Source: Psammoneis japonica (taxonomy: Eukaryota). From it: DNA of 64,000 nucleotides. Below the pieces are notes generated by a model that saw only the letters and a list, made by a program, of their open reading frames with translations, had not been told where the DNA came from and did not search any database. The DNA lies in contig QPGO01000091.1 in NCBI GenBank assembly GCA_008632985.1, forward strand, positions 62,001-126,000. Direction: 5' to 3'. The number at the start of each line of letters is the position of its first letter. The first letter of the stretch is position 1. The position numbers and the translations under genes were made by a program. Below are positions 1 to 59,594 of this stretch, piece by piece.

Positions 1-65
1 AGGAACTCCGTCTTGTAAAGGCAAAGCTTGAAAGTGCATTAACAAGGAACAAGGAGGCAGAAGCT

Positions 66-1552
66 GTGATGGAGATCAAGTGTGGTGAACTCCGAATTGC
101 ACTCGAAACATCAGACAAGGAGAAAGAGAAACACAAGAAGCAAGCCATCCAGAACATGGAGAATCTCATGGCGACAAAAACAATTCTCTCTCATGATGAT
201 CTAAAGCCTGGAGGCTTGTTGGGGGGGTTTGTTGGGGACTGCACCTGCTTTCCTGCATTTAAATGCAACGAAGCCTTCCTGGACTTTCTTGGTCATGGCG
301 AAGCATGCGATCCCGCGACGGCTTGTGTGAGAACATCAGACGGCACTCCAGGGTCAGCTGGGAAGAAAGGAACGGCAAATCGTGAGAGAGACAGAGCAGT
401 GCAGGAGAGTGGCAATGAGTCAGATTTCTGTGTGCCGCTGGATGATTCAATGGGCGATGGTGAAAATTTTGAGAACTTGACCGAGGATGAAAATGTGGAC
501 CCGAAGCATGGCGGCAGCCGCGAGGGCAGTGGGAAGAAATGGCTCTTGTCTTGGAAGATGGAGTGGCTTGTCTACAATGTGCGCGCTCATTGCGGATTTA
601 CCATGCGACAAATTTGTCCTTTGTTTGGCATGGGGGCACCGGGTCTAGTCTCTGACATGGCACATGGTTGGGCGAACCTGTTGAACGATGCACTCGCTCG
701 CCTCTTTCCAACACCAACACGGAGTCAAATGTTGCGAGCACATCCTGTGAGTGTGATTCGCAAATTTGGTCATGCCCTCATCTTCATGCTTCTAGACGCA
801 ACTGAAGAAGGTGCCCAAAATGCATCAATGAAAACAATGAACTCTGCGTTGTTTTCGGCATGCAAGCATGGATCAACTGTAAAGTGGCTAGTGGGTTCAG
901 ATCCAATTGGAACAACATGGCACAAGTCGACACCAAGAGGACACCCTGGTGGCATCAGTGACCCGGCACAGACAATGGTGACAAAGATTCTTGATCAAGT
1001 TCCGTTTGGGCATGCAGTTGAAGTCGACAAAGGATTCCTGACAGACAACGACTGTGCCATGAAAGGCATCATTTGCACTCGTCCTCAGAAGAAACTGGAC
1101 AACCAAATGCAGCAATCGAAGGCGGACACGGCTTTGACGCAGAAAGTTGGCAAAACAAGAATCCCAACAGAACAAGCCAATGGACAAATGAAACAGTCCA
1201 CTCATTTTTCAACGACAAGATGAAGTTGCTGCAACTTGGATTGGCGGACGTCATGTTCCGTGTCGGATGTCTCGCGCAGAACTTCAAGGTTGGTTTCATT
1301 CAGGAGCAGGATGGAAGGAACGACCAAGAGACTGGGAGGCCTTGTTGTGCAGAGATTCGACATTGCGGAGGGGAAGACAGTGGATCAGTGGACGTGAGAC
1401 CCAATGTTGAGCTTCGGGGAACGGAAAAGGAGATCGAGCGGTGGCAAGAGATTCGAGAAAAAAATGAGGAAATGACCGATCTGGAAGTGTCCGAGAAAGT
1501 TCTAGCTGAGGATTGGCCAGCAAAGCTCAAGGGTGAACTAGACTCACTGTAA
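66..1552 (+). pseudogene. DDE transposase relic (DDE_Tnp_4, ISL2EU/IS5-Harbinger-like), frameshifted near 1205
   Basis: Motif order LDATE...FSA(C)KHGSTVKWLVG.DP.G...G(H)PGGISD...VEVDKGF...RIP.EQANG.MK matches the DDE_Tnp_4 core. The C-terminus continues in ORF 1073-1552. Only 1 Tyr in 385 aa, and positions expected to be Tyr read as Cys/His. Confidence 0.85.
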
Positions 1553-2090
1553 TGTTTGTGATGGTGTGACATTTAGTTCTCCGAATCGGCACCCAGATGT
1601 CGCGACGATCCCGCAGTTGTGCGCCAAAATCCCAGCGCGTTTTGCTCAAGCAGGTGTCACTTCAAAAAGATTTAAAATTATGACACAATCAACAGCTGGA
1701 ACATCATCTACAGAACAAGAGCTTTCTGATGATGTTGCTTTTATTTCCATGCCCCCAACAGATCCGAATTCTCATCCACATGTCCTGCCGACCCCGCACT
1801 TGCGCGCCACAAAATCCCAGTGCGTTTTGCTCGAGCAGGCATTGCTTCAGCAAAAACTGGAATTACAGCACAATCAATGGCAATGACATCATCTGAGGAA
1901 ATGACTGATCTGGAAGTGTCCGAGAAAGTTCTAGCTGAGGATTGGCCGGCAAAGCTCAAGGGTGAACTGGACTCACTGTGATGTTCATGATGGCGCAACA
2001 CTCAGTTCTGTGACCCCAGCAGATCCGAATCGGCATCCAGATGTCGCGATGATCCCGCAGTTGCACGCAAAAATCCTGGTGTGCAAACAA
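1465..2090. repeat. Local direct duplication of the transposase 3' end (about 1465-1655 vs 1894-2085), plus a third partial copy near 1760-1840
   Basis: tgaggaaatgac(c/t)gatctggaagtgtccgagaaagttctagctgaggattggcc occurs twice. A ccgaat...ccc gca.ttg...aaaatcc unit occurs three times. Confidence 0.9.
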
Positions 2091-2214
2091 ATGCAAGTGT
2101 GCCGGTGTCCAAATGAACCGGGGTCTGCCGGTTGCTGAGGTTGGTGAAGGACGAGAATTTCGCTTTTTTGTCGAGTCCTCCAGGGAGCTGCTTCAGCAGC
2201 CCTTTGACACCCAT
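2002..2214 (-). pseudogene. N-terminal fragment of an XPG/FEN1/EXO1-family 5' nuclease
   Basis: MGVKGLLKQL...PVHLDTGTLAF resembles the XPG_N start (MGIxGL...xxIDxS). It is truncated by the duplication. Confidence 0.55.
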
Positions 2215-2524
2215 TCTGAGTGGCCATTTTTGCTTGTGTGTCCGTGTGTGGCAACTTATGTGACAAGAACGACATGGTGAATGCTGCCGCTGCGATGACT
2301 GCTGCAGTGAAAAAATCGAAATGATTTTCAGCTCAAATCCGCTTGACGTACAGTCTGTCTGTCGAACTTGAAATGAAGAAATCGTCGCCCGTTCGTTCGA
2401 TCGAATGAATCATACATCATCATGGCGTCGGGCGGTTCGTCCGGCGGTCGTCACTCGTGTAGCCTTCGCGCGCAACAATCGCGCTCACTTGCCACCCTGC
2501 CTGCGGGCGGCCGCGCGGCGGCGG

Positions 2525-2637
2525 CAGAGGTGCATAAATCGTCTGTTGTCGCCCGATGCGCGCAAACGCGAATTGTGCGCGCGCTGAGTGTGCGAATGCG
2601 CGTGTGCGAACGACAACAGACGATTTGTGCACCTCTG
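2525..2637. mobile_element. Small MITE-like element with 27-bp terminal inverted repeats
   Basis: cagaggtgcataaatcgtctgttgtcg (2525-2551) pairs with cgacaacagacgatttgtgcacctctg (2611-2637), with 1 mismatch. No clear TSD. Confidence 0.6.
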
Positions 2638-4161
2638 GCCTCACGGTGTTTCAGAGCGGCATTGGCTTTGTAGAAATGATTTTTTGTGCCAGCGTAGAAA
2701 TCTACACACATTTCTGGCACACAAAATTCATGCCGACATCAACCTTTTTGTGATCTTTCGACAATGGCGGCGTTCTCGGTTCGCAGCTGTTGCGCCACTG
2801 ACACCTCGTCAATTGTCGCAAAACCTGCAGCATGTTGCTCGTCACCCTCTTCTCAGTTCATTTTTTCCTCTGACATTGCATCTTCTTTGGTCACAATCTT
2901 GAATTTCGATGGCATCAACACAAGGTGAAAATCCAAAGCGGGTGCGAGTTGGTTGTTGGTTTTTAACCCCGCGTTTTCATTTTAAATGCCCACCTGAACA
3001 GCATTTTGCCTTCTCTTTCACTTGATCCCCCAGGGTGTCATTGTTTCGAGCTGCAGTCATCCGGGGAGCCGTTTGCTGAGGCCATGAGCCATGAAGCTTC
3101 TGTTGAAATCTTTCTGTTGGGTGGAGATCACTAAACACGGTGACTGCCCTGTTGGGGTGGACACTCCGATTCGTTTCAAACATTGCCAAAGGAATGAAAC
3201 AAGTCACCCAGTTTCCGTATTTCCTGTTGGAGACTCGAATGAGCAAGCCACACTTGCTAACACCGCGGTCCACTTCGAAGGCAAGATCAAAACATCTGAC
3301 TCTGCTTGTTTGTCTCGTGGAATGAGATGTCTTCTTTAGACAGCTCGAATTTAGAGCCAATAGAAAAATGTAAAAAACACATTAGAACGCCCCATTAACA
3401 TCACAATAGTTTCGTTTTAGAGATGGGAAGGAGCGCCAACCATCAATGGCAGCTCAGCAGCATCAAAGCCATCGGAGCGCGCTCGGTTTCAGAGCTGAGA
3501 TCTGCGTGAATCCATCATTTCGTAAAGAGCATAAAACAGCACCACAACTCATGGACTCATGGGTGATTGATTTACATCAGAAGCCTTTTTCACAACAGTC
3601 ACTGGAAAGGCATAAGACGATGCGATCATCGTCAATCCAGGGTGAGTTCACCGATTTTTGTGATCGAGTGTTCTCTTTGTGACGTCACGTACTAGAAAAT
3701 GTCGTAAAGTCTACACAGAAAACGGAACACCAATTTGAAGCTGCTACTTCGTGGCCAAAATAAGCTTACCATTTGGAGCACATCTAAGAAATGGTCACTC
3801 CAACGAGTAAAGTGAAGGGCTATGGAAGGTGCTCCAAATGCCACAGCAGTTTTGATGTTGTAGTAACATCTTGAAACTTGCAGCTCTGTGTCATTAAGTA
3901 GGATTCCGTAAAATCTACGTGTCATGCATGAAAGCAAGGAATTTTAAAATTATTCGAGGTCGATCGAGCTCCAAAATAATTAATTTTGATTTTAGTCGTA
4001 CAAGTCGAAGCTAATGCCACTCGCGCGTAGAACTGAAACACCGTGGCCTGCGGAACCCGAAGATCGCGGCGCAGGCAGCTGAGCGATCATCACACCATGA
4101 CGAATCCAAATCATCAACGAAACTCCAAGACGTATATGTTTCACTGCAAGTAGGAGGTATC

Positions 4162-4872
4162 ATGGATGATTCATTCGAAGGTGCAATTCATCAAAGTGTC
4201 AGTGATCATTTGGGACACCGACAAGAAGTGGATTCGATCCGCAGCGTGATGGAAGCGTTCAAGCAAGCTGCCAATTTGTGCACCATTCAGCACAAGAACA
4301 AGATTTACGCAACGGGAATGCGTCCAAATCTCAATCTAGCTAGGCCTACACCATCATTTTGGCTCGATTCTGAACAACACATTAGAATTGAACCTTTTGT
4401 AGAAAACAATCAGGCTCAATACTGTGCCATTGAAGATGTTTTAAAGTTGGAACTACACGTGGGTGCTCGAGTGGTATCCTTTTCCGACGCCACACGCACC
4501 AAGTGTGGTCGGTTCGTTGGAGGGTATATTGAATATTACTTTATTTTTGACGATCTCATTCCAGCGAATGGACCAAATAGTTCGGCATTACAAGGGAAAG
4601 TAGGGGTGCTCTATAGGGTTCAACCTGGACTTTTGGCGGACTTGAAACTGGATGCATCGTCTGATGAACGGAACGCTGCAACGCATCCTTCACGTTTCTC
4701 GACCAGTGACTTGCTAGGACCCGTATCATTTACACAAATTTCCTTTATGGCAATGTATGAAACCGGTGAATCTAGCAGCAGTGAATATGATAGTGAGGAG
4801 GACGAAGGCAGCAGTGAATCATCTCAATCTGATAGTGAGGATGACGAAGTCATCGAAGAGAATGAAACCTAG
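4162..4872 (+). CDS. Hypothetical protein with acidic C-terminal tail, copy 1 of a duplicated pair
   Basis: 236-aa ORF with normal composition. It is a paralogue of 11738-12385, sharing FKQAAN.CTIQHKNKIYATGMRP and DASSDERNAATHPSRFSTSDLL. Confidence 0.65.
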   Translation: MDDSFEGAIHQSVSDHLGHRQEVDSIRSVMEAFKQAANLCTIQHKNKIYATGMRPNLNLARPTPSFWLDSEQHIRIEPFVENNQAQYCAIEDVLKLELHVGARVVSFSDATRTKCGRFVGGYIEYYFIFDDLIPANGPNSSALQGKVGVLYRVQPGLLADLKLDASSDERNAATHPSRFSTSDLLGPVSFTQISFMAMYETGESSSSEYDSEEDEGSSESSQSDSEDDEVIEENET

Positions 4873-5529
4873 AGAGCACCCAATTCTACCAGTCGATCAT
4901 GCATTGTTTCAAAGAGGGGTTGCAACTTAAAACTTAAAGAAAAAAATCTACATTTTCTAACATGATAAGCTGAACAGAACGGGGACACAATTCGCACGCA
5001 TTCATCTCGACTACCCAATAGAAACGACCGAATTGAAGCATGCCATATGCATGGAGGCTAGCCGAAAGAATTGGTGGCGTCACAAGTGGGCTTGAGAAGT
5101 TCTCTCGCCAAAGCTGCTGCTCTAGATGCCACCGATGCAAATCGTCCTGACACTGTGAGTTCCTTGAATGAACTGTTCTGGGCACTGGAGAACATCAACG
5201 GCTCCACTCGGAACCGGGCCATGAGGTGATGTCTTTGGCGGGATTTTAAGCAATCAAGACCCGGATTCCCCAAATGCACTGATCCAATTGCACGCGGAAG
5301 TGAGCACAAAAAAACGCTTGAATGCATTCAAGAAGAAGCCAGAGAGTTGGATCTGATTGTTTGTCATTGGTGTGAGAAGAATGTGATGAACTGCTGCCCT
5401 TGCAAGATGCTGCACCAGCAGTGGGCTGCTGCTGCTGCATCCAGTGCTGATGCAATGATTGTCAAGTCCATGTGTTGAAGCAAGAATTTTTAGGCTGGTG
5501 CAGCAACATGGGAGTGTTTGAGCATTGCT

Positions 5530-11600: not shown

Positions 11601-11737
11601 GTCCGTGTTTGATCCGCTAGAGCGAGAGCCTCTGAGCGGAACATAATAATGTTATTCGCCCAAAGTTTTGGAGTTTGGGAATACTCGTATTTCGAAATAC
11701 TCCAAGATACGCAACAGTGTCACTGCAAGTAGGTATC

Positions 11738-12385
11738 ATGGATTCATTAGAAGGTGCAATTCGTCTATGTGTAAGTGATCATTTGGGACACCGACAAGAA
11801 GTGGATTCGATCCGTAGCATGATGGAACCGTTCAAACAGGCTGCCAATGTATGCACCATTCAGCACAAGAACAAGATTTACGCAACCGGAATGCGTCCAG
11901 ATCTAAATCTAGCTAATGCACTGTATTGGCGCGATGCAGATGAAGAAAAATATATCATAATGAAACCTTTTGTAGAAAACAACCAGGCTCAACGCTGTGC
12001 CATTGAAGATGTTTTAAAGTTGGAACTGCATGTGGGTGGTCGAGTGGTATCCTTTTGCGACGCCACACGCACCATTTGTGATGACTTCGATGAAAGCACG
12101 GGGGACATTGAATATTGCTTTATTTTTGAAGATCTCATTCCAGACAGTGAACCATATAGTTCAGCAGTAGAAGTGACCGTGCGGGTGGTGTATAGGATTC
12201 AACCTGGACGTTTGGCGGACGTGAACCTGGATGCATCGTCTGATGAACGAAATGCTGCAACGCATCCTTCACGTTTCTCGACCAGTGACTTGCTAGACCC
12301 CGTAATATTTTGCCCTATTACTTTTACGGCAATGTATGAAATCGATAGTGAGGATGACGAAGGCGTCGAAGAGAATGAAACCTAG
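11738..12385 (+). CDS. Hypothetical protein, copy 2 of the duplicated pair
   Basis: ATG at 11738 aligns with 4162. Homology continues about 600 bp beyond the stop. Confidence 0.65.
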   Translation: MDSLEGAIRLCVSDHLGHRQEVDSIRSMMEPFKQAANVCTIQHKNKIYATGMRPDLNLANALYWRDADEEKYIIMKPFVENNQAQRCAIEDVLKLELHVGGRVVSFCDATRTICDDFDESTGDIEYCFIFEDLIPDSEPYSSAVEVTVRVVYRIQPGRLADVNLDASSDERNAATHPSRFSTSDLLDPVIFCPITFTAMYEIDSEDDEGVEENET

Positions 12386-12834
12386 AGAGCACCCAATTGT
12401 ACGAGGCGATCATGCGTTGTTTCAAAGAGGGGGTTGTTGCAACTTAAAAACTTGTCGCAGAAAAAAATTCTCGATTTTCTAGCGTGATAAGCTAAGAAGA
12501 ACGGGGACACAATTCGCAAGTACCGCATTCATCTTGACCCAATAGAAAAGACTGAATTGAAGCATAACATATGTATAGAGGCTAGCCGAAATAATTGGTG
12601 GCGTCACAAGTTGGCTTGAGAAGTTGTATCGTCAAAGCTGCTGCTCAATGTCACCGATGCAAATCGTCCTGAAAATGTGAGTTGCTTGAATGAACTGTTC
12701 AAGGCACCGGAACATGTCAACTGCTAGCTGTGTCCACTCGGAACCGGAGGTGGTCATTGTCGGGGGTTTTACGCAAGACCCGGATTCCACTGCACTCTAG
12801 TCCAACTACGCATGGAATCAAGCACCACAGAAAT

Positions 12835-28024: not shown

Positions 28025-28679
28025 GGTCGAGTTGACGGCTGTTGTAGTCGTTGCTTTTTTGTGATCCCATCATCAGTTTTGCGGTTTTCGCCGGAGGAAG
28101 CACAAGGAGCGACGTACGTACGGTACGAAGATTTGGCCCAATCTAAAAAAAATTTGAAAATTCCCAAAAGCAAAAAGCAAACTTGGAAGCCCATCACTCT
28201 GTAACTATCGATCTGACGCTCGACACGTCGACACTTAGGTCGTATCGTTGTACACCCTCCATGGCGTTTCTTCAAACTTTTCTGGTTTGAACTGAGCGGT
28301 CGTGGAAGGCAAAAACGTCAATCTTTGAGATCATCGCGCAAATCTTCTGATGTCAAATGATTTCAAGCGTCTTTGGCATGTGATGATGATGAGGCTGCGG
28401 CAACGGAAATGCCGGGTTTGGAATGCGATGAGTGCAATGGAATGATGATTTGCACACGAAACACCCATTTCACTCCAATTGACGAGCGCATGCACTGACT
28501 TTGTGTTGAATCTTTTGCAGAAGCAGAGTTTTCCCGTCGATTCGCAGGTGAGTTTGTCACCGCGACGATTTTCACTCACAGTTCCGTGGAACAAAATGCG
28601 TGCAACGATGAGCTTCATGTGAACCAAAGAGCAGCAAATCTTGTGTTGCGTGCATTGTGCACCGAAAGGAGCTGTCAAA

Positions 28680-30230
28680 TCACTCCACTCGAACTTTTTT
28701 AGAGGGCAAAGGAACGCCATGAAGGAGGAACATGCACTCCTCTGGCCTTTTCTCCTTGGCAATGAGTTTTTCGCGAAGTTTGCCAACATGTTTGTCCTCA
28801 TTGGCATGGTCGAGGATTTCCTTCGAGCGCACGACATGTCGTTCAACACAGCCAATGTGCCCTTCCAGGAGAATGCACTTCAAATGCCCCAGCAATGGGT
28901 CCACGAATGTTTTCTTTTCGACGTCGAAATTGGCCGTGATGGTGGAAAACACACGCTTCTTTTGAGTTTCCAGCATGCCAGTGTGAACTTGTTGAGACGC
29001 AATCTCAGTCTTGGCCTCTTGCAGACAATCCATCACGTTGTGTGTGCCTTTGCAATGCGACAGCCAGCACCAGAGGAGTGGTGTGGCGACAATTTGTTGT
29101 CAGACAACAATGCACAAACCTTCTGCTTGAACAGATTCATCATCTCTGTTGGGCAAATTTCTTCTTCGCAAAATTTGGAATCGAAACAGTGGCTGGTGGT
29201 GCCACAAGTTCCTTCCTGCCGGAGGGCTTCGAAGCAAGCATCCTTGAAACGCGGAAGTGCATGTTTCTGAATGTGAGCTTGGTCTGTCAGCCAAAAAGAA
29301 AACATGAGAGATGGTGCAAGCCGTGGGAAGCCGGAATTAATTGACAGAAAGGAGATGTCTTACATTCAGCTGGGATTGCCAAAATCAACCATCCATGGAT
29401 TTTGGTTGACGGTTCATTTCGCAAACATTGAGCTGATTGACTCGAACGTCATTTCGGTGGCTTTCTTCATGAATTCCTCTGCGATCGGTTTCCAGAGGTT
29501 CTTAACTTTTCTGACTGCATGTTCGAACACTTCCTGGCCCTGGAACAATGCACAATGGAAAGAGTTGATTGCAAAGCCCGAGGTGGCAAATTCAATGGCA
29601 ACCTCACCCTTGGTCTCGTTGATTTTGTCCTTTAGAAGGAGCAAGCACTTGTTTGAAAGATCCTTCTCCAACTCGTTGATCTGGTCCTAAGACCTGATGG
29701 CAACAGTTTGCAATCTCAATGCGAGACTTCAGCTCCACACCAACTTTTTCAAGTTGCAGTTGGGTCTTGTTGAGATTGTCGGAAACGCTCTGTTTCAACA
29801 GGGGCAGATGTTTCTTTGCGAGGTTGGCAAACAGAGGCTGAAGCCTTTCCTTGAGCACAGTGACACCAGATCTTTCATGAGGCACTTTGCACTCTTCACT
29901 GAGCTGTTTCAATTCCATCTGATCTCCTTGTTTGTCCGATTGAAGTTTGCCATCTTTGCCAACTGAAACAATGGCATGTGGACCCAAGTTCAGATGACCA
30001 GTGACCAGCAACGTCCGTGCCATCCGCAGAAAGTAGAAAGGCCATCGACGACCAGCTTGACAGCTCTGGCTTGAGTGTCAGGAGGGAAAGCTCCAGGACA
30101 AATTCAGCCCTGCCACTGGCATTGCAGAAATTGTCCAATTTTGTCACACTGCTTTTGCACTCACTTGGGGGCTGTGTTTTGCATGTCCTTGACAAGCTCG
30201 CATCACAAGGCAACCAAAGAGACAAATGCT
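28680..30230 (-). pseudogene. Dynamin/Mx-like GTPase relic (end of G domain, middle domain, GED)
   Basis: TKLD (G4-like), then SGVTVLKERLQPLFANLAKKHLPLLK (middle domain), then ITANFDVEKKTFVD...EDKHVGKLREKL (GED). Split over several ORFs and TA-depleted. Confidence 0.65.
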
Positions 30231-30369
30231 GAACAGAATTTGCCATTCGCAAAATTCTCATGAACTTTTTTGACTCTCTGTCAGCCCAAGGGTGAAGGCA
30301 CTGACTGCAAGGAATCCTCATTTGGCAAAGTGAGGTTGCGGTGTTTGGGCCCCACACTGCATTGGAAAT

Positions 30370-31527
30370 GAATCTCTCTGTTGGGGCTGCCCTGACGGCC
30401 TTTCCAGAAAGACATGTGGTGCTTCCAAAGGGATCGATGACGAGTGGATGGGTTCCAGCATCTGCGTTGGCTAACCCGATTTCACATGGTGAAAACCTTG
30501 GCTTCCCCGGTTGTTTCAACATGTCGATGATTTTGGCACACTTCTGGGGCCCCTCCAGCATCAAACGAGCAACGCTCTGCTCAATGTCGCTGGGAATCTC
30601 TCCATCCATCTCCGTCTCTAATTTCCTGAAAAAGAATCTCCAACCGGCGTCGGCCAACTCTGCCCGCTTCGCGAATTGTTGGCCAAGCAGATTTTTCCTG
30701 GATTTTTTGTCTGTGGGTTGTGTTTGCATTGACGATTGGCACAGATCCTGTGGCTCACCAAATTTCAAGTCGAATTGTCCGGCAATGTCACTGGAAAGCT
30801 GTTCCCTCCGAAGTTTGTCCACAAAGGAAGTGGGCATGCGGGGGGTCAAATGGTCTGTTGCCTCTTTGGGGGCAAAGTCACCAATGTGCACGCCAATCAC
30901 TCGGTGGGCTTCAAGGTTCAAACCTGCCTCAATGGCAGCTCTTGAGTCTGAAATGTCAACGATGATTCTCGGATGTCCTCTGTCACGTTTTTCGCAGGAC
31001 AATGTCTTTGCCTGGGTGACAACGCCATTCAATGCGCTTCCGCCGCAGCCGGCTTCGAGCGACACTGCGACAACTGGCTTCGACAGTGGACTCCAGGCAA
31101 AGACTCTTTCGACAAAACTTTCAGACTCCGGGGTCCCAAACACGTGAAGCCTTCTTGACAACTTTTCAATCAGCTCATCTTGAGCTTCGTCGTGATCTGT
31201 TTTCTTTAAACTGACATTGATCACCCCTCGGTGGCCACTGAGGGCATGTCGAATGAGCGATGTTTTCCCTCCACCCCTGTTGCCAAAGACAAGAACAGTT
31301 TTTGACTGTTTGTTGTTTGATGCTTCCAGCAATTCTTTTTCCAACGAAGCACGTTCAACAAATTTGCTGTCATTGATTGTTTCTTTCGGGCCGACCTTGA
31401 TCAGCAGCAACGAGGCGGAAACAATGGCTCTGATTTGCTCATGGATGGGACAAATGACAGCGACTGACATCGCAACAAACTGCAACCAGAAGAAAACCGA
31501 CTCCTCCAAGCTTGCTTCATTTGACAT
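30370..31527 (-). pseudogene. P-loop ATPase (AAA/STAND-like) with N-terminal TM segment, TA-erased
   Basis: FVERASLEKEL...VLVFGNRGGGKTS Walker A. There is no Tyr in the 543-aa ORF, whose tail runs into the dynamin relic. Confidence 0.65.
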
Positions 31528-33444
31528 GGTGCACTCAGCTGGTTGAGACCCAATTTTAACGTCTCTGCTTGTTTGGTGTCCCCATTGGCACCTGAGGTTG
31601 ATGGGTGATGTGTGGCTCTCCTGTCCACGCGTGCTGCATCTTCACTCGCCGCGGCGACGAAACCTGATGCAGGCGATGCAGACTCTCCACCGATGGGGTG
31701 TGGCAGCAACGCACGAGATCAGACGTTGCAAAATTTAGCAGTTGTTGGAGGCATGGCGAACATTGGCTTGAAAAAGAAGGGAGTCATGTGGCAATCATTG
31801 TCAGGACCACAAAAGACAGCATCGATGATGTCCAATGCATGGTGGACATCAACAGGCTGCTGCTCTGGTTCTCAAACAATGGCATCATTGTCAGATTCCC
31901 TGTCATCCAAAGCTGTTCCTTGGCTTGCATCATTTTCGTTGTTGTCATCATGCAAGCCATCATCTGCAACGTCCAAAGCAGGTTGGGTGCCGGACATTTG
32001 TGCTGCTGTTGCTGTGTGCTCCTGGTCATGCAAAGGGCACAGCACGGGCATTCTGTCATTGACCCCATGGGGCAACACATCATGAGGAAAAATGCACTTC
32101 TTCACAAATTTGTGGCAATTTTCAACAGCAATGAGAGCTTTTTTGGGCACAGTTGGTTGAGTGCATCACAGGTCATCAACAACAGATTGACAGGGGACTC
32201 AGGTTTTGCAGTTTTTGAAAGAGCAGCACTGCTCCTCCAGCAGCACACAGATGCAATTCAAATGTGTCTGTTTGTTCCAAAGAGAGCTCATCATGTTTTC
32301 ACATGATTTGACTTGGATGGCTCAGTTTTGAGTGACAAGAAAGAGTTTCCAAGCAAGCCTTTGTCAGAAGATTTGAGTTGACTTTGAGTTTTTGAGTTCT
32401 TGTTCCAAGCAAGTCAAGCTGTGCATGGAAACTTCCCAGTCTCAGCAACCTTTGATCTCCATGGGCGCAGCAGCAGCAACAACAACAACAGGTGGGCAAT
32501 GAGCCACACTCTGGGTGGGGCAAGTGAGATTGCAGTTTGTTGGTGGAAGCATCTCAGCATCAGCCATCCCTTCTTGTGCTGCTTGTTGCATTTCTTTGCA
32601 AGTTTTCAAATGCCTTTTGGTGCACTGGCAAATTGCATCCCATGGATCATGCCCCAGCTGCAAGCAAAAAAGCATGAAAAGCCTTGTGGGGCAAAGCCTT
32701 GCAGGCTTTTTGCCCTCACAATTCATTTCAGCAGTTCCCTGAAAGACCCAACTTCCTAAAGCTGCATCATGCTGCATTGAAGTCAGCTCCAGCCTGATCC
32801 AAGCACAGCACCACTCTGCTTCAACATCATTGGCAGAAGCTGCCTCTTCCTGCTTGTGTTCAATGTGCCGTTCTTGAACCTCCAAACATGGTGTCTCATG
32901 CAGATTGCTCACCTGGTGTGGCTCTTCTGCAAAAAGCTCCCAACTAACTTCCAAACTCTTCCCCTGCAAGCAACATGATGCCTGCTGCAGATGGCAACAC
33001 AGTGACAGTCAGTGTTGTGCCCAACCACTTGAGGAGCCAGGCAAGTGTTCAAACTGGCAGTCATCATCATGTCTGCCACCAGGTGGCTGGCTCATCTCTT
33101 TGCCCGTAATGTGATCTTGCTCTGGCAACAAATTGCAGTTGATTGCTGGTGATGTTGGTGCACTGCTTTTGTTTCACAGCAGAAATTCTTTGTGCTCCAT
33201 CCAGTCACTGGTGGGAAGCAAGATTTTTCATGGTGAAATGAGAAATGTCAAGAGATTCTACTTCAAGTCACAGCAGCAACTCAGCACCACCGCTGCCTGA
33301 GGCATGCGATGAGGTGGCAACATGTTGGCGAGGAGTTGATTTTGTGCAACTTCACAAGCCGGCAACAACACAACGGCAGTCCAACCATCATAGACTGCCT
33401 CTCCTGCTTGAAAGACGCCACACAGCAACATTGTTGCTGGCTTT

Positions 33445-34957
33445 CTACAACCTCTGCCTGCTGTAGATGGCAACACAGACAGTCAACGACGTGGCACTCG
33501 CAGAGTCAGGCAAATGTTCAAACCAGCAGTCATCATCATCATCACATCCGCCACCGGGCACTCGACCCATCTCTTCGTCCGCAATGCGATCTTCCTCCGT
33601 GTGGTCCATGAAACCAGACTGTGGGCCTTCTCCTCCATTCAAATCACTCGCCGAAGGACCTCCAGGAGGCATCAGCTTTTGCTCCAACGCAGTGACAGTC
33701 GGGTGCTTGGGACTGGACCCGCTGAAAGCTCGGCCAGTGAGAGCGGACATCATCACTTCATGCTCCTTTCTCTGTCTGACAAAGTGCCCATAAGCAGTCA
33801 AGCCCTTTGGGTCCTGTTTTGACTTGTTGGCTCCGGCAGCAAGCAAAGCATCGATAACTCGAGTTTCCCCTGTCCCATTGATCGAGTTACGACCCGCAGC
33901 AGACACTGCCGCACACATGAGCGGCGTGATCCCATGTTCATCCGCCGTGTTGACGACAGCGACTCTCGACTCTACCATCTCCAACAGGGCCATGAGAGCA
34001 GCGTCGTTGTTGTTGGCAGAGGCGGCATGCAGGGCGTGGGAGCGATCGATCGAGCCACCTTCAGTGACGAGACGGGACACATTTCTTAGAAGATCAGCAA
34101 GCTGGGGTGCGGAGGGCTGATGGGACGACTTGATCGCCTGTAGAATCTCCGCATCCTTGCCACTGGGAGGCGGTGGTTTGGGAGGTGGCACATGGAACTG
34201 GATCGCCTGAGCTTGAGCATGCGTCAATGTGGGCATGCCACCGGCTCCCTTTGGGGCCCAATTTCCGTAAGATGCCACAAGGAACCTTTCGTTGCCCTGA
34301 TTGGCAAGGGCAGGATCCTGAAAGAAACCGTTTCGGAGAAATTGGTTGGCATCCAGGCGAGCAAGGCCGTCGAGTTGAGTCTTCTCTGCCGCTTTGGCCT
34401 TTCGATCATCGTCGGTTTCAACCTTGCTTTCAAACGGAGACCGAGAATGCCAGGCCTCTCTCTGCTTGGCTCGGAAGCTTTCCTTCTCCTGACTTGTCAT
34501 GGCCTCCAATGGATCCAGAACACACACAGCGGATGACACTTTCCAGCACCCAAACTGGAGATCTCCACGGATGAACGGGTGGTGAAGGAACTGGTGCAAA
34601 GCAGCTGTCCCGATGTCTGAAGCCCCGTTCACTTTGCATTCATCGTTCACATGAAGAACATTGATGCACATTGTGTCGAACTCCGGGTCGCCTGGTTCTT
34701 CCGTGTCACGGTTCAAAAGCAGTCACGCCAACCTCCTGCATTTCCTGACTGTGTCCATCCACAGCCGACATGAAGCAACCGTCAGGGATTCTCTGTCTGT
34801 CAATGATGGTCGCCACAATGCATCCAATCTTCTTGGTCTGATGGAGCACAATGTCTGCCTGAACGTTCGTGAAGGCACCACATTCACCGTCCTCATCCAA
34901 CGAATGCGTGAGCTGCAGCGAGACATCTGCGACGCTCGAAATTGCAGGGGAGCTCAT
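33445..34957 (-). pseudogene. Ankyrin-repeat protein gene, TA-depleted, interrupted near 34706
   Basis: ALHAASANN...ADEHGITPLMCAA...LLAAGANKSKQDPKGLTA. The N-terminal ORF 34706-34957 ends at TGA. 3 Tyr in 423 aa. Confidence 0.7.
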
Positions 34958-34965
34958 TGCTGAAT

Positions 34966-35229
34966 AGCTTCATCGTGGAACCCCGCAAATGCGCGGGGAC
35001 CCTCCTGTGCCGCAGAGGTCTACGCTCATTTTTGTGTGTGGCACTGAAACATGTAGCCTGCATGCGCAAAACTGGCACAGTTTCTACGACAAAATTTCGA
35101 AAAAACGCCTAGTTCGCGAGATGGCTCTGGTGCAAAACGCACGTAAAGAGTCCCCACACATGCACGTGCAACTCTGCACATTTCCGGGTTACGGGTCCCC
35201 GCGCATTTGTGGGGTTCCACGATGAAGCT
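34966..35229. mobile_element. MITE of about 264 bp with 37-bp terminal inverted repeats
   Basis: agcttcatcgtggaaccccgcaaatgcgcggggaccc (34966-35002) pairs with gggtccccgcgcatttgtggggttccacgatgaagct (35193-35229), with 1 mismatch. Confidence 0.8.
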
Positions 35230-37132
35230 GAACTCCAGGGTAGAAAAAAAAGCTCGACAGAATTCCTTCTCTTCTGAGGACTCTGGGAGAAAAAGAGATT
35301 GCAAGGGAATGATGAGAAGACACCGCAGCAAAAAACGATCATGCCTCATTCATCATTGTGGTGTTCCGGATCTTTTTTTGCTTTCTTTGTTCGTGATGCG
35401 TCTGTGAGTCTGCACGCAAAGTTCGAAAAACAGAAAAGGCGCAAAAAGCAAGAAGCAGAAGGGGTGATGAGCGAGCGACGAGCAGACAGAGAACCGCGAC
35501 ATTCTGCAAACATTTGCTTGTCATTTTGGGTGTCGCCACTTTGGGTGTCAGTCGCCACTTGCAACGAGAATCATCGCAGTGGCGGTCTTTCTGTGCAGCA
35601 TTTTCTGCACATGTTTTGCACTTTTGTCCGTCCCCACCACCTCCAGCCCGATCCGAGATGGCAGGGACCGATGGGTGAAAGCACAAAAAACAAGCGCAGA
35701 AATCACCACATGGGCAGACCACCACTGTGACTCTCATTGCAAGTGTGGCAACACCCAACTCATCTTGCATTTCTGCTCAATTCAGTTGACTCCCTTGACC
35801 TGACTCTCTTGCCAGTGGATTTCAGAGACAGCCGTCCACAGCCAGAGAGATGGAGGGAAATGGAGCATGGGCTTCTTCAGAACCCATCACAACAGATTTC
35901 CAGAGAGAGCGGCGAGGTGTGGAGCAGCCGCAACACTGTTCTCTGAAGGCAGGCACACCACTCATTTGTGTGCCAAAAAAAGCAAACAAGGAGCAGCCCG
36001 TGTGCCACATGGCAAGACTGTGGTCGTGGGTGAGAATTTTTGTTTTTTGTCATTTGAGTTCTCTCCAAGCCTCATGCTCCAAACAATGACCTGCAAATGC
36101 CATGTTGCAGTGCATCACTTTGAGCATCATTTCAAGATGTGTGCTTTTAAGGCATGCACATGAGTTGCACACAGCAGCAAAATGTCGGGCAGACAACGGC
36201 TGTGCAATTGACTGCAATTTGCACGACAAATTGTCGTTCAATGCCAAAGCTTGCTCAGAGTGCACCACTGCTTTGATGTTCTCAAAGAGCCCCGGGAACA
36301 CATTGGTCATCTCAGCATGCAACAGCTCTTCTTTCAAAAGCTGTCTTTGACAAAGCCACTTTGCAAGACATTGCTCTTCTTCAGCTTTGGCACAGCACAA
36401 GAGTGCTCCCTGCTGTTCTTTTGTGGCAGTTTTCTGAAGAGCGGGACAACAACAGCAGGGGTGTGGAAATTCAAAACTCCAAACTGCCCCCCAAGCCCTT
36501 TTCACAAGCACACGCCCAAATTCAAAAGCTGTGCTCAGCAGCAACAAAACATCACTTGTCAACACCAGCATGCAGCTGCTGGGCCACACAGTGCTGGGCA
36601 GACACTTTTCTCTGCCTCTGGTGCGGACAGGGGACCACTCACACAACACATGGGAGCCAGTGCAATTTTCCTGTCAACTGTCCCAACAAATCTTGTGATG
36701 ATGTTTTGGAGCCAATCTCCCACCCCCCCCCCCCCCCCCACCATGTGCAGCAGGAGCTGGCAGCATGCTGCTGTGGGTGGCAGAGTGTGCGCATGTGGGG
36801 AGGGGGGGGCGAGTGGTGCGTGTCAGGAGGAAGCGCGTGCAAAATCTCATGTGAGGTTTCCCTGAAGCTCAACCCAGAGAAGCCAGCTGTGAGGTGTCTC
36901 AGCTTTTGCAGTCTCTGTGTGCTCTAGAGAGAGAGAGAGAGTGTGTGTGTGTGTGTGCTTCTTGAGGTCGCTAGCTCGAAAGGGCCCATGATGTACCGGC
37001 AACTCCTCAACACGAGGGATGTGAGAGACAGACAGAAAGACAAGACAGACAACGATTCGGCGGGAAGTTGTTTTTGACACAAATCTTCGCGAGTGACACT
37101 TTCCTTTTCCTTTCTCAGTAACACTGTCGAAC

Positions 37133-58228: not shown

Positions 58229-59594
58229 ATGCGTTTCGCCGTCCTTTGTGCCCTCCTTCTTGCTGTCTCGGCACGTTCTGCTACCGCAGACAGAACCACA
58301 TCGACGGAACCAGACGATGGCATTTCTCGTCACCGTTCACGCCTTCGAAGGGAGTTAAGGGTTTCGTCGGACGAGGAAGGCGCAAACTCCATTAAAGAAA
58401 AGAAGAGTAAAACTGCCAAGAAATCCTCGAAACTCAGGAAAAGTCAAGACAGCTATGTAGAAGAAATAGACATATCTCCTGAAGCAATCCCTGGAACCAC
58501 CAACGACGTCTCTGCCATCGACTTCGCTCAACAAGATGCGACAGTCGATGAGGATGCTGACGCAGTAGTTGATAAGGAAACCAACGTCCCTCCCTTTGCA
58601 GCTCAACCAGAGACCGACGTGAACGATTTTGTTCTACCGGAAGCATTGTCCAATGAGGACGCCAATCTTTGGGACGCATTTGACTTTGAAACATTAAGCA
58701 TGAGCATCACAGGAAGCCTGACTGCAGCTCCTTCCCCGGCTCCGACTACCTCTCCAACTCCGAGTCCGACTCCTTCGCCCACACAGAGTCCACCGCCGCC
58801 TCCTCCTCCTCCNNNNNNNNNNNNNNNNNNNNNNNNNNNNNNNNNNNNNNNNNNNNNNNNNNNNNNNNNNNNNNNNNNNNNNNNNNNNNNNNNNNNNNNN
58901 NNNNNNNNNNNNNNNNNNNNNNNNNNNNNNNNNNNNNNNNNNNNNNNNNNNNNNNNNNNNNNNNNNNNNNNNNNNNNNNNNNNNNNNNNNNNNNNNNNNN
59001 NNNNNNNNNNNNNNNNNNNNNNNNNNNNNNNNNNNNNNNNNNNNNNNNNNNNNNNNNNNNNNNNNNNNNNNNNNNNNNNNNNNNNNNNNNNCGCCGCCGC
59101 CACCGCCGCCTCCTACTGAACCTCCTACCTCGGCTCCGACGCCAGATCCTGGAACGTGCAGTGACGCCGACAAAGCTCTTTGCGATGATGCCTATAAGGC
59201 AATGACGGGGTTAAGTAACAACCGCGCCAAATGTTGCCCCGCAACTAGCGGATGCGTCAAGGATGCTTGGGCAGCTCAGGCCACAGTAACCTGCAGCACC
59301 GAATGTGGCGTGGGTTGTATCTCTGGCGAAACTATAGGAAACAACCCAGAGTATCCTTCGACCTATTGTGTCATTTCAGATGTTGTGATCGAAAACATGC
59401 CTTCGTGTGAAGACGTGAAGGCGGCAGCCATGACTGGCCTAATTTGCCAAAATTCTGGTGATCCTCTTTGTTGCGACGGAGGCTTCGATTGCACCACTTC
59501 AGCAACCTACGGACCAACGTCTGCACCGCAGGTTTGCGTCAACCCTCCCAGGGCTACGCCAAATACCAGTCCAATAGATGACTGCCCTCCTTAA
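58229..59594 (+). CDS. Secreted Pro/Thr-rich protein with Cys-rich C-terminal domain, candidate cell-wall protein; spans an assembly gap
   Basis: Signal peptide, RRELR, Lys/Ser cluster, acidic region, PTPS repeats and poly-Pro. After the gap, PPPTEPPTSAPTPDPGTC is in frame with ORF 59202-59594. Confidence 0.75.
58813..59091. other. Assembly gap (N run) within a poly-proline repeat
   Basis: N run flanked by (CCG/CCT)n. Confidence 0.99.

Follow-up and report, generated by a model that had tools for sequence, protein, structure and literature searches.

Does a short duplication at the tail of a decayed transposon preserve a record of TA dinucleotides being converted to TG or CA after the duplication took place? 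The question is raised by the beginning of a 64,000-nt stretch of the genome of the diatom Psammoneis japonica (assembly GCA_008632985.1, contig QPGO01000091.1, positions 62,001 to 126,000 of the forward strand), for which a preliminary description had proposed that an internal duplication captures such conversions, including independent TG and CA outcomes. We refer to this whole stretch as the window, and all coordinates below are positions within it. Our analysis supports the proposal in part: the duplication lies in an element that is clearly TA-erased, and the differences between its two copies represent mostly CpG decay together with a few probable TA losses.

Structure of the locus

The window opens inside a Harbinger/PIF-type transposase on the forward strand. 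Its N-terminal part, together with the DDE domain, is encoded by an open reading frame (ORF) at 3..1223, which matches Pfam DDE_Tnp_4 (E 6.1e-11; 42.6 bits, the cut-off being 24.8). The ORF is still open at the left edge of the window and terminates prematurely following the loss of 1 nt near 1203-1204; in one paralogous contig there is an additional base behind 1203, i.e., at the site of the deletion. The C-terminal part follows on the same strand in a shifted frame at 1205..1552, is 44-58% identical to 11 relatives over their C-termini and ends in a TAA stop at 1550-1552, so placed that the C-terminus ends where the relatives end. A protein search found 51 transposase relatives, and the named ones belong to the diatoms Attheya, Cyclotella and Thalassiosira. 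The closest relative is 73% identical over only 15% of the query, and paralogues from the same species are absent from the protein collection, so that silent sites cannot be polarized from proteins. When metagenomes were scanned with the transposase peptide, 114 stretches matched by pattern and none was confirmed, the patterns being derived from the mutated copy and thus liable to miss unmutated relatives. Further downstream, at 2525-2637, lies a 113-nt near-palindrome whose 27-nt arms are 96% complementary; the DNA around it is rich in CG, with 26-27 CG per 250 nt. A contig depth of 1500-3900 marks the near-palindrome as a high-copy element, possibly the terminal region of the transposon or a miniature element.

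Both repeat finding and blastn show that the segment 1465-1640 recurs at 1894-2084 with the same internal junction. The duplicated segment consists of the last 88 nt of the frameshifted transposase ORF and approximately 100 nt of the adjoining satellite unit, which is itself approximately 185 nt long. Independent repeat finding scored the duplication at 116 nt and 91%, and blastn aligned 1465-1632 with 1894-2076 at 83%, including a 15-nt indel. Five parts succeed one another on the forward strand in the order A1-B1-B2-A2-B3. A1 (1465..1556), identified by repeat finding and alignment, comprises the final 88 nt of the ORF and 4 further nt, in the first of their two copies. B1 (1557..1739) is the first satellite-like unit of about 185 nt; its first 85 nt or so lie inside the duplicated segment, and it carries a 15-nt deletion relative to both B2 and B3. 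B2 (1740..1893) is a second, older satellite unit. A2 (1894..1985) is, by alignment, the duplicate of A1, and B3 (1986..2085) is the duplicate of the start of B1, which contains no TA and whose likeness to B1 fades past about 2085. In what follows, A1 with B1 is copy 1 and A2 with B3 is copy 2. Since B1 and B3 are 83% alike when part A is included and each is 73-76% identical to B2, the latter can be used as an outgroup for the B part of the duplication.

Contigs from one public sequencing run, aligned on positions 1-3000 at 80% likeness (470 pieces), supplied the paralogous sequences. One aligned paralogue spans 1276-1556, and a paralogous contig departs from the window directly after 1556, which marks the boundary between part A, the ORF end, and part B, the satellite. 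In the same run, contig depth over the repeat of about 185 nt is 1500-5300 against about 250 over the ORF, and contig joints over the repeat go back by 185 nt; together, the high depth and the spacing of the joints indicate that elsewhere in the genome the repeat forms a tandem satellite. Metagenomes were also scanned for a degenerate 22-nt motif from the satellite core; the 119 loci recovered are all chance motif matches with blastn alignments of at most 24 nt.

TA erasure in the transposon and in the window

What the element has lost can be read from its protein. We compared the window copy with 17 of the 51 relatives, picked for length and score. Its 406 aa include a single Tyr, compared with 7-15 where these 17 relatives align. 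At 12 conserved Tyr columns (Tyr in at least 60% of the relatives) the window reads Y once, H four times, C three times, F twice, and G and R once each; every one of the 17 relatives has Tyr in 6-10 of the 6-10 N-terminal columns that it covers. The shifted-frame part at 1205..1552 contains no Tyr, and both of its conserved Tyr columns are Cys. Conserved Ile residues that have been retained use ATT or ATC in nine of nine cases, and those that have been replaced read ATG (4), ACA (3) and, once each, ACT, GCG, TTG and GTG. A change of TA to CA or TG would be expected to produce just these replacements, Tyr to His or Cys and Ile to Met (ATG) or Thr (ACA). The changes deduced in this way are spread evenly over the two strands (forward strand: about 8 T-to-C and 7 A-to-G), and about 85% of TA has been removed from the transposase ORF. 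By this protein comparison TA is ancestral for the element as a whole, and at the scale of the element its erasure to CA and TG is clear.

The transposase is part of a wider pattern. Over the whole window, the ratio of observed to expected is 0.39 for TA and 1.40 for CA and TG. TA falls below 0.25 of expectation in 49 of 127 bins of 500 nt (128 less one with N; the window contains an assembly gap of 279 N at 58813-59091). These TA-poor bins amount to 24.5 kb and merge into six tracts, in which TA is 0.02-0.17 and TG+CA 1.4-2.1 of expectation and whose edges are sharp to about 50-100 nt. The tract that holds the duplication (1..3330, with its right edge at about 3260-3340) has TA at 0.15-0.17, CG at 0.62-1.2 and TG+CA at 1.4-1.5 of expectation. 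In several TA-poor tracts CG is down to 0.05-0.10 as well, but it is largely kept in 1-3000 and in most of 28.5-36 kb while TA is lost there, so that TA loss and CpG loss are separable, and can be told apart at the present locus.

In regions with normal TA, ORFs have clear Pfam matches (DUF4470, exostosin, ankyrin, MSS51/zf-MYND, DUF2921, DUF4419, reprolysin and WbsX), and a Pfam search of 29 stop-free frames from the other TA-poor tracts gave sub-threshold matches only. Among these tracts, the one at 28500-37000, in which much CG is kept, shows sub-threshold AAA_16, ankyrin and Dynamin_M matches in long stop-free frames and may consist of decayed gene copies rather than transposons. The window also contains a direct repeat of about 1.1 kb with normal TA (4122-5269 and 11699-12788, 78% identity), each copy of which has a 236-aa ORF without a Pfam match. 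It brackets a tract at 5.3-11.6 kb where both TA and CG are almost fully erased, and the edges of this tract coincide with the inner ends of the repeat.

Differences between the two copies

Copies 1 and 2 differ at 21 of 176 aligned positions and by one 15-nt indel. The differences are strongly patterned: 20 of the 21 are transitions and one is a transversion, and 18 sit in pyrimidine-purine (Y-R) steps, so that 18 of 85 Y-R positions differ compared with 3 of 92 others (Fisher p 2.8e-4). As an internal control we took 4100-5300 and 11677-12820, a pair in normal DNA with 78% identity and the only long repeat in the window besides the duplication. Its 188 differing positions comprise 87 transitions and 101 transversions, against 20:1 in the duplication (p 9.5e-6), and they include three TG/CA doubles; the share of differing positions that lie in such doubles is thus 6/188 in the control and 8/21 in the duplication (p 5.4e-6).

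Sorted by dinucleotide, CG is present in both copies at 7 places and is opposed by TG or CA at 6 sites, having been lost four times in copy 2 and twice in copy 1. TA is present in both copies at a single site; it is opposed by TG at two sites (1540 and the stop codon at 1551) and by CA at one (1574). At four sites TG stands opposite CA, namely 1557-58, 1567-68, 1620-21 and 1633-34, with partners in copy 2 at 1986-87, 1996-97, 2064-65 and 2077-78, respectively. T/C changes outside TA or CG are found at 1572, 1592 and 1640. TA-type changes therefore account for 3 of the 16 differing dinucleotide or single sites, and one of the three can be polarized. The preliminary description had read the sequence accurately here: 1535-1554 has TA at 1539-40 and 1550-51 where the matching string at 1964-1983 has TG at both, the transposase TAA stop (1550-1552, in the ORF 1073..1552) is TGA in the copy at 1979-1981, and the two TG/CA pairs that it listed, 1557-58/1986-87 and 1620-21/2064-65, are both present, the other two of the four being additions of this study.

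How far these classes exceed chance differs between them. With the non-Y-R background of 3/92 and 20-27 TG/CA steps, 0.65-0.88 differences are expected for the TA type and for the CG type each. The 6 single sites of CG type are well above this (P <= 3e-4), and the 3 TA-type differences are borderline (P 0.03-0.06). Four or more tandem TG/CA doubles appear in 0.1% of random placements of 21 changes and in 6.7% of placements restricted to Y-R positions; given the latter figure, the doubles mostly follow from the concentration of changes in Y-R steps and add little beyond it. If CG and TA are taken as ancestral, copy 2 received 7 hits and copy 1 received 2, which is not significant (p 0.18), and neither is the 3:0 asymmetry of the TA-type differences, in which TA was kept in copy 1 each time (p 0.25). 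The four differences between A1 and A2 are all silent in the ORF frame (ACC/ACT, CCA/CCG, CTA/CTG and TAA/TGA). By our own arithmetic, four of four silent has a chance of about 1 in 16 given dinucleotide-targeted changes, and it is therefore no evidence for selection.

Ancestral states at individual sites

The third satellite copy, B2, polarizes several of these sites. At 1574..1575 (forward strand, as for the sites below) copy 1 has TA, copy 2 has CA (2003-04) and B2 has TA; by this outgroup TA is the ancestral state, which became CA in copy 2. At 1620..1621 copy 1 has TG, copy 2 has CA (2064-65) and B2 has an intact CG (1803-04), and this site is accordingly a CpG that was hit on opposite strands, not a TA conversion. 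The preliminary description had explained the TG/CA pairs by one palindromic dinucleotide hit on opposite strands in the two copies; that part of its explanation is borne out at 1620-21, and the part that counted such pairs among TA conversions fails there. The remaining three TG/CA sites read TC (1557-58), TT (1567-68) and CA (1633-34) in B2; the first two are uninformative, and the third is ambiguous, CA also being the state of copy 1. Elsewhere B2 has CG at 1606 and 1638, where copy 2 has TG, so that CG changed to TG in copy 2 at both. At 1565 and 1636 B2 reads TG, for which either T must have become C in a TG step or CpG must have been lost in parallel.

The two TA/TG differences at 1539..1551, TA in copy 1 and TG in copy 2 at 1968-69 and 1979-80, lie in part A, which B2 lacks. 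Both 1540 (Leu, CTA/CTG) and 1551 (stop, TAA/TGA) are silent, so protein relatives cannot polarize them. CG was rejected as the ancestor at 1540 because the Leu at 1538-40 is common to two relatives and the second codon base was therefore T.

On balance, CpG decay after the duplication is well supported, and TA loss after the duplication is suggested, not established. The earlier assertion that mutation continued after the duplication agrees with copies that diverged almost only at two palindromic Y-R dinucleotides, but its TA component stays at the level of a suggestion. Likewise, the view that the duplication records TA conversions finds support in the outgroup TA at 1574 and is weakened by the numbers, TA-type differences being only 3 compared with 6 single and at least one double of CG type.

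Context of the surviving TA

Whether a TA survives depends on its flanks. Comparing the TA-poor bins (113 TA in 24.5 kb) with the normal bins (1290 TA in 29 kb), and with the gene-rich bins taken as a proxy for ancestral composition, survival is 0.31 for TTAA, 0.28 for CTAA/TTAG, 0.15 for CTAG, 0.034 for ATAG/CTAT and 0.013 for ATAC/GTAT. The flank effect is strand-symmetric (chi-square 59.8, 9 df, p 1.5e-9) and suggests a sequence preference of the mutating process or of repair. All four TA of copy 1 (CTAG, CTAG, GTAA and TTAG) are in the slower half of the context classes. This fits a late, slow conversion in copy 2, and survival bias under other readings fits it too.

Copy 1 is also unusual in forming an island where TA was retained. 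There are 8 TA in 1503-1742, against a prediction of 1.9 from the flanking 3 kb (P 8e-4), and TA is absent from the 613 nt upstream of it, between 890 and 1502. The slow contexts account for part of the island. The mutator may be patchy, or copy 1 may have received sequence by gene conversion from a paralogue with fewer mutations; such conversion, if it took place, would undo the dating of the mutation after the duplication.

Proposed explanation and alternatives

The reading that we prefer, with a probability of roughly 0.6, is a local duplication followed by mostly CpG decay and a minority of TpA loss. A decayed copy of a Harbinger DNA transposon abuts an array of the satellite of about 185 nt, and a segment of about 190 nt across the junction of the ORF end and the first satellite unit would have been duplicated locally, to behind the second unit. 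Afterwards, the copies would have diverged almost only through transitions at pyrimidine-purine steps. The majority of these would be CpG to TpG or CpA, as would follow if methylated cytosine were deaminated on either strand, and the minority would be TpA to TpG or CpA, the same A:T-to-G:C change that has stripped the ORF of most of its TA and other sharp-edged tracts of nearly all of theirs. The downstream copy would have been hit more often by both kinds of change. Under this explanation the differences at 1540 and 1551 would mean that copy 2 lost TA, not that copy 1 gained it, CpG would be methylated at the locus, and the TA change would be the work of a DNA-level process, e.g., a putative adenine deamination at TpA; as a DNA transposon is here joined to satellite DNA, a step of RNA copying would not be involved. 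The TA island at 1503-1742 speaks against the explanation in its simplest form, since a uniform tract-wide process does not account for it.

The TA-type differences might instead come from CpG decay and ordinary drift only. In that case the duplication would postdate the TA-erasing episode, TG and CA would be ancestral, and TA would have been made in copy 1 by G-to-A and C-to-T changes. Such an account can draw on the borderline excess of TA-type differences (3 against 0.65-0.88), on the dominance of CG-type sites, on the fact that the sole resolved TG/CA site was CG, and on the surplus of TA in the stretch around copy 1 relative to the flanking DNA. We nevertheless find it unlikely: the outgroup TA at 1574 would demand a parallel CA-to-TA change in two copies, all three changes would have occurred in one copy, and a gain of TA opposes the strong net TA loss of the element. 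The TA richness of copy 1 (8 TA in 240 nt) would also be understandable if the copies had not diverged in place, either because gene conversion replaced copy 1 (about 1503-1742) with the sequence of a less mutated paralogue or because copy 2 and the DNA downstream of it belong to another, more mutated transposon joined by recombination. Either way TA would remain the ancestral state, but the differences could no longer place the mutation after the local duplication. The genome has many copies of the transposon and the satellite (470 contig pieces, depth up to 5300) that could take part in such an exchange, and the 15-nt deletion of B1 is absent from B2 and B3. Yet the A-B junction is common to both copies and missing in at least one paralogue, which favors a junction that was copied once, and the slow contexts of the TA in copy 1 explain part of the island without conversion. 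On this evidence, we regard exchange or recombination as distinctly improbable.

Two further accounts carry very little weight with us. One is an assembly artifact, by which the second copy was mis-joined among high-copy satellite units and two loci are being compared. The satellite is very abundant, and there are several alternative contig joints in 1700-2050; on the other hand, contigs of the public run cover 1901-2000 (depth 47) and 61% of sampled words of 1-3000, an argument that is weak inasmuch as the run may be the assembly's own data. We put the chance of such an artifact at very low. The other account is ADAR-like A-to-I editing of transcripts followed by reverse transcription, which is the least credible of all. 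ADAR enzymes prefer to make A-to-G changes with a 5' U/T neighbor, and the A-to-G changes with a 5' U/T neighbor at this locus resemble that preference, but the element is a cut-and-paste DNA transposon with satellite DNA, the changes are strand-balanced as given above, and the sharp edges of the tracts are unrelated to ORFs.

Returning to local duplication followed by CpG decay and some TpA loss, a broader proposal may be made, to which we give slightly less than even odds: that this diatom runs a DNA-level, TpA-directed A:T-to-G:C editing on silent repeat DNA. Such editing would act long after insertion, would hit each strand and each copy independently, would be 10-20 times more complete in its erasure of TA with T or C behind it than of TTAA or CTAA/TTAG, and would be separate from the decay of methylated CpG. 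If this is true, the last TA, those in slow contexts, are seen in the course of conversion in the duplicated transposon tail. A local duplication offers paired sites, from which the order and the strand of the hits become readable once other genomic copies are aligned. Caution is needed in reading such pairs: TG opposite CA in these tracts is no evidence for a lost TA, because CpG decay looks identical.

Comparison with known systems

With regard to the element itself, the window copy shares DDE_Tnp_4 with the PIF/Harbinger DNA transposons of other diatoms and has 45-71% identity to its diatom relatives; it differs from them by its frameshift, its many substitutions and its truncation at the window start.

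As for the mutations, methylated transposons are known to lose CG to TG or CA through deamination of 5-methylcytosine. Decay of this kind explains the 6 single sites, the resolved TG/CA site and the loss of CG in the most eroded tracts, and CG does appear as the ancestor of TG and CA in that B2 has CG at 1620-21, 1606 and 1638. It cannot yield the differences between TA and TG or CA, or the Tyr-to-His/Cys replacements. Diatom transposons are methylated according to the part available to us of a paper on diatom methyltransferases (PMC9998398), which in that part brings up repeat-induced point mutation (RIP) only through DNMT4/RID relatedness. Directed TA erasure in repeat DNA is the mirror image of fungal RIP. 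In Neurospora and other ascomycetes, RIP is a transition-only hypermutation of repeats that turns CpA/TpG into TpA and enriches TA. Our locus is like RIP in that transitions affect repeat and transposon DNA with a dinucleotide preference and that both copies of the duplication are altered. The chemistry is the opposite, however: instead of C:G-to-T:A changes that raise TA, TA has been destroyed (0.15-0.17 of expectation in the tract, and lost by comparison with the protein outgroups) and CA and TG are enriched, and duplication as the trigger is without support here.

In our literature search a single publication, a 2026 preprint on the unrelated alga Bigelowiella natans (Mettrop et al., bioRxiv 10.64898/2026.01.13.699255), described the TA-erasing signature, and no description of it from a diatom was found. 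In the preprint, integrated viral DNA of B. natans is described as undergoing a hypermutation restricted to TpA, which becomes TpG or CpA on either strand, and an ADAT2-like adenine deaminase is proposed as the cause. It also reports de novo events in mutation-accumulation lines, TA in viral regions at 0.45 of expectation, and an enrichment of TA-poor coding sequences in DDE endonuclease and reverse-transcriptase domains. Compared with what is described there, the host in our case is a diatom, the targets are not inserts of giant viruses or virophages but a DNA transposon and a satellite, TA is reduced further (0.02-0.17 of expectation against 0.45), CpG is also lost in several tracts, and the mutation is read from sequence only, whereas theirs was observed de novo. 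The B. natans changes are almost exclusively A:T-to-G:C, whereas G:C-to-A:T changes at CG sites form the majority between our two copies. The likeness is found at the scale of the element and its tracts: TpA has changed to TpG and CpA, and it has done so in local tracts of foreign or repeat DNA in which a clustered depletion of TA goes together with an enrichment of CA and TG. Since the targets at this locus include a cut-and-paste DNA transposon and a satellite, an RNA intermediate is unnecessary for such a process.
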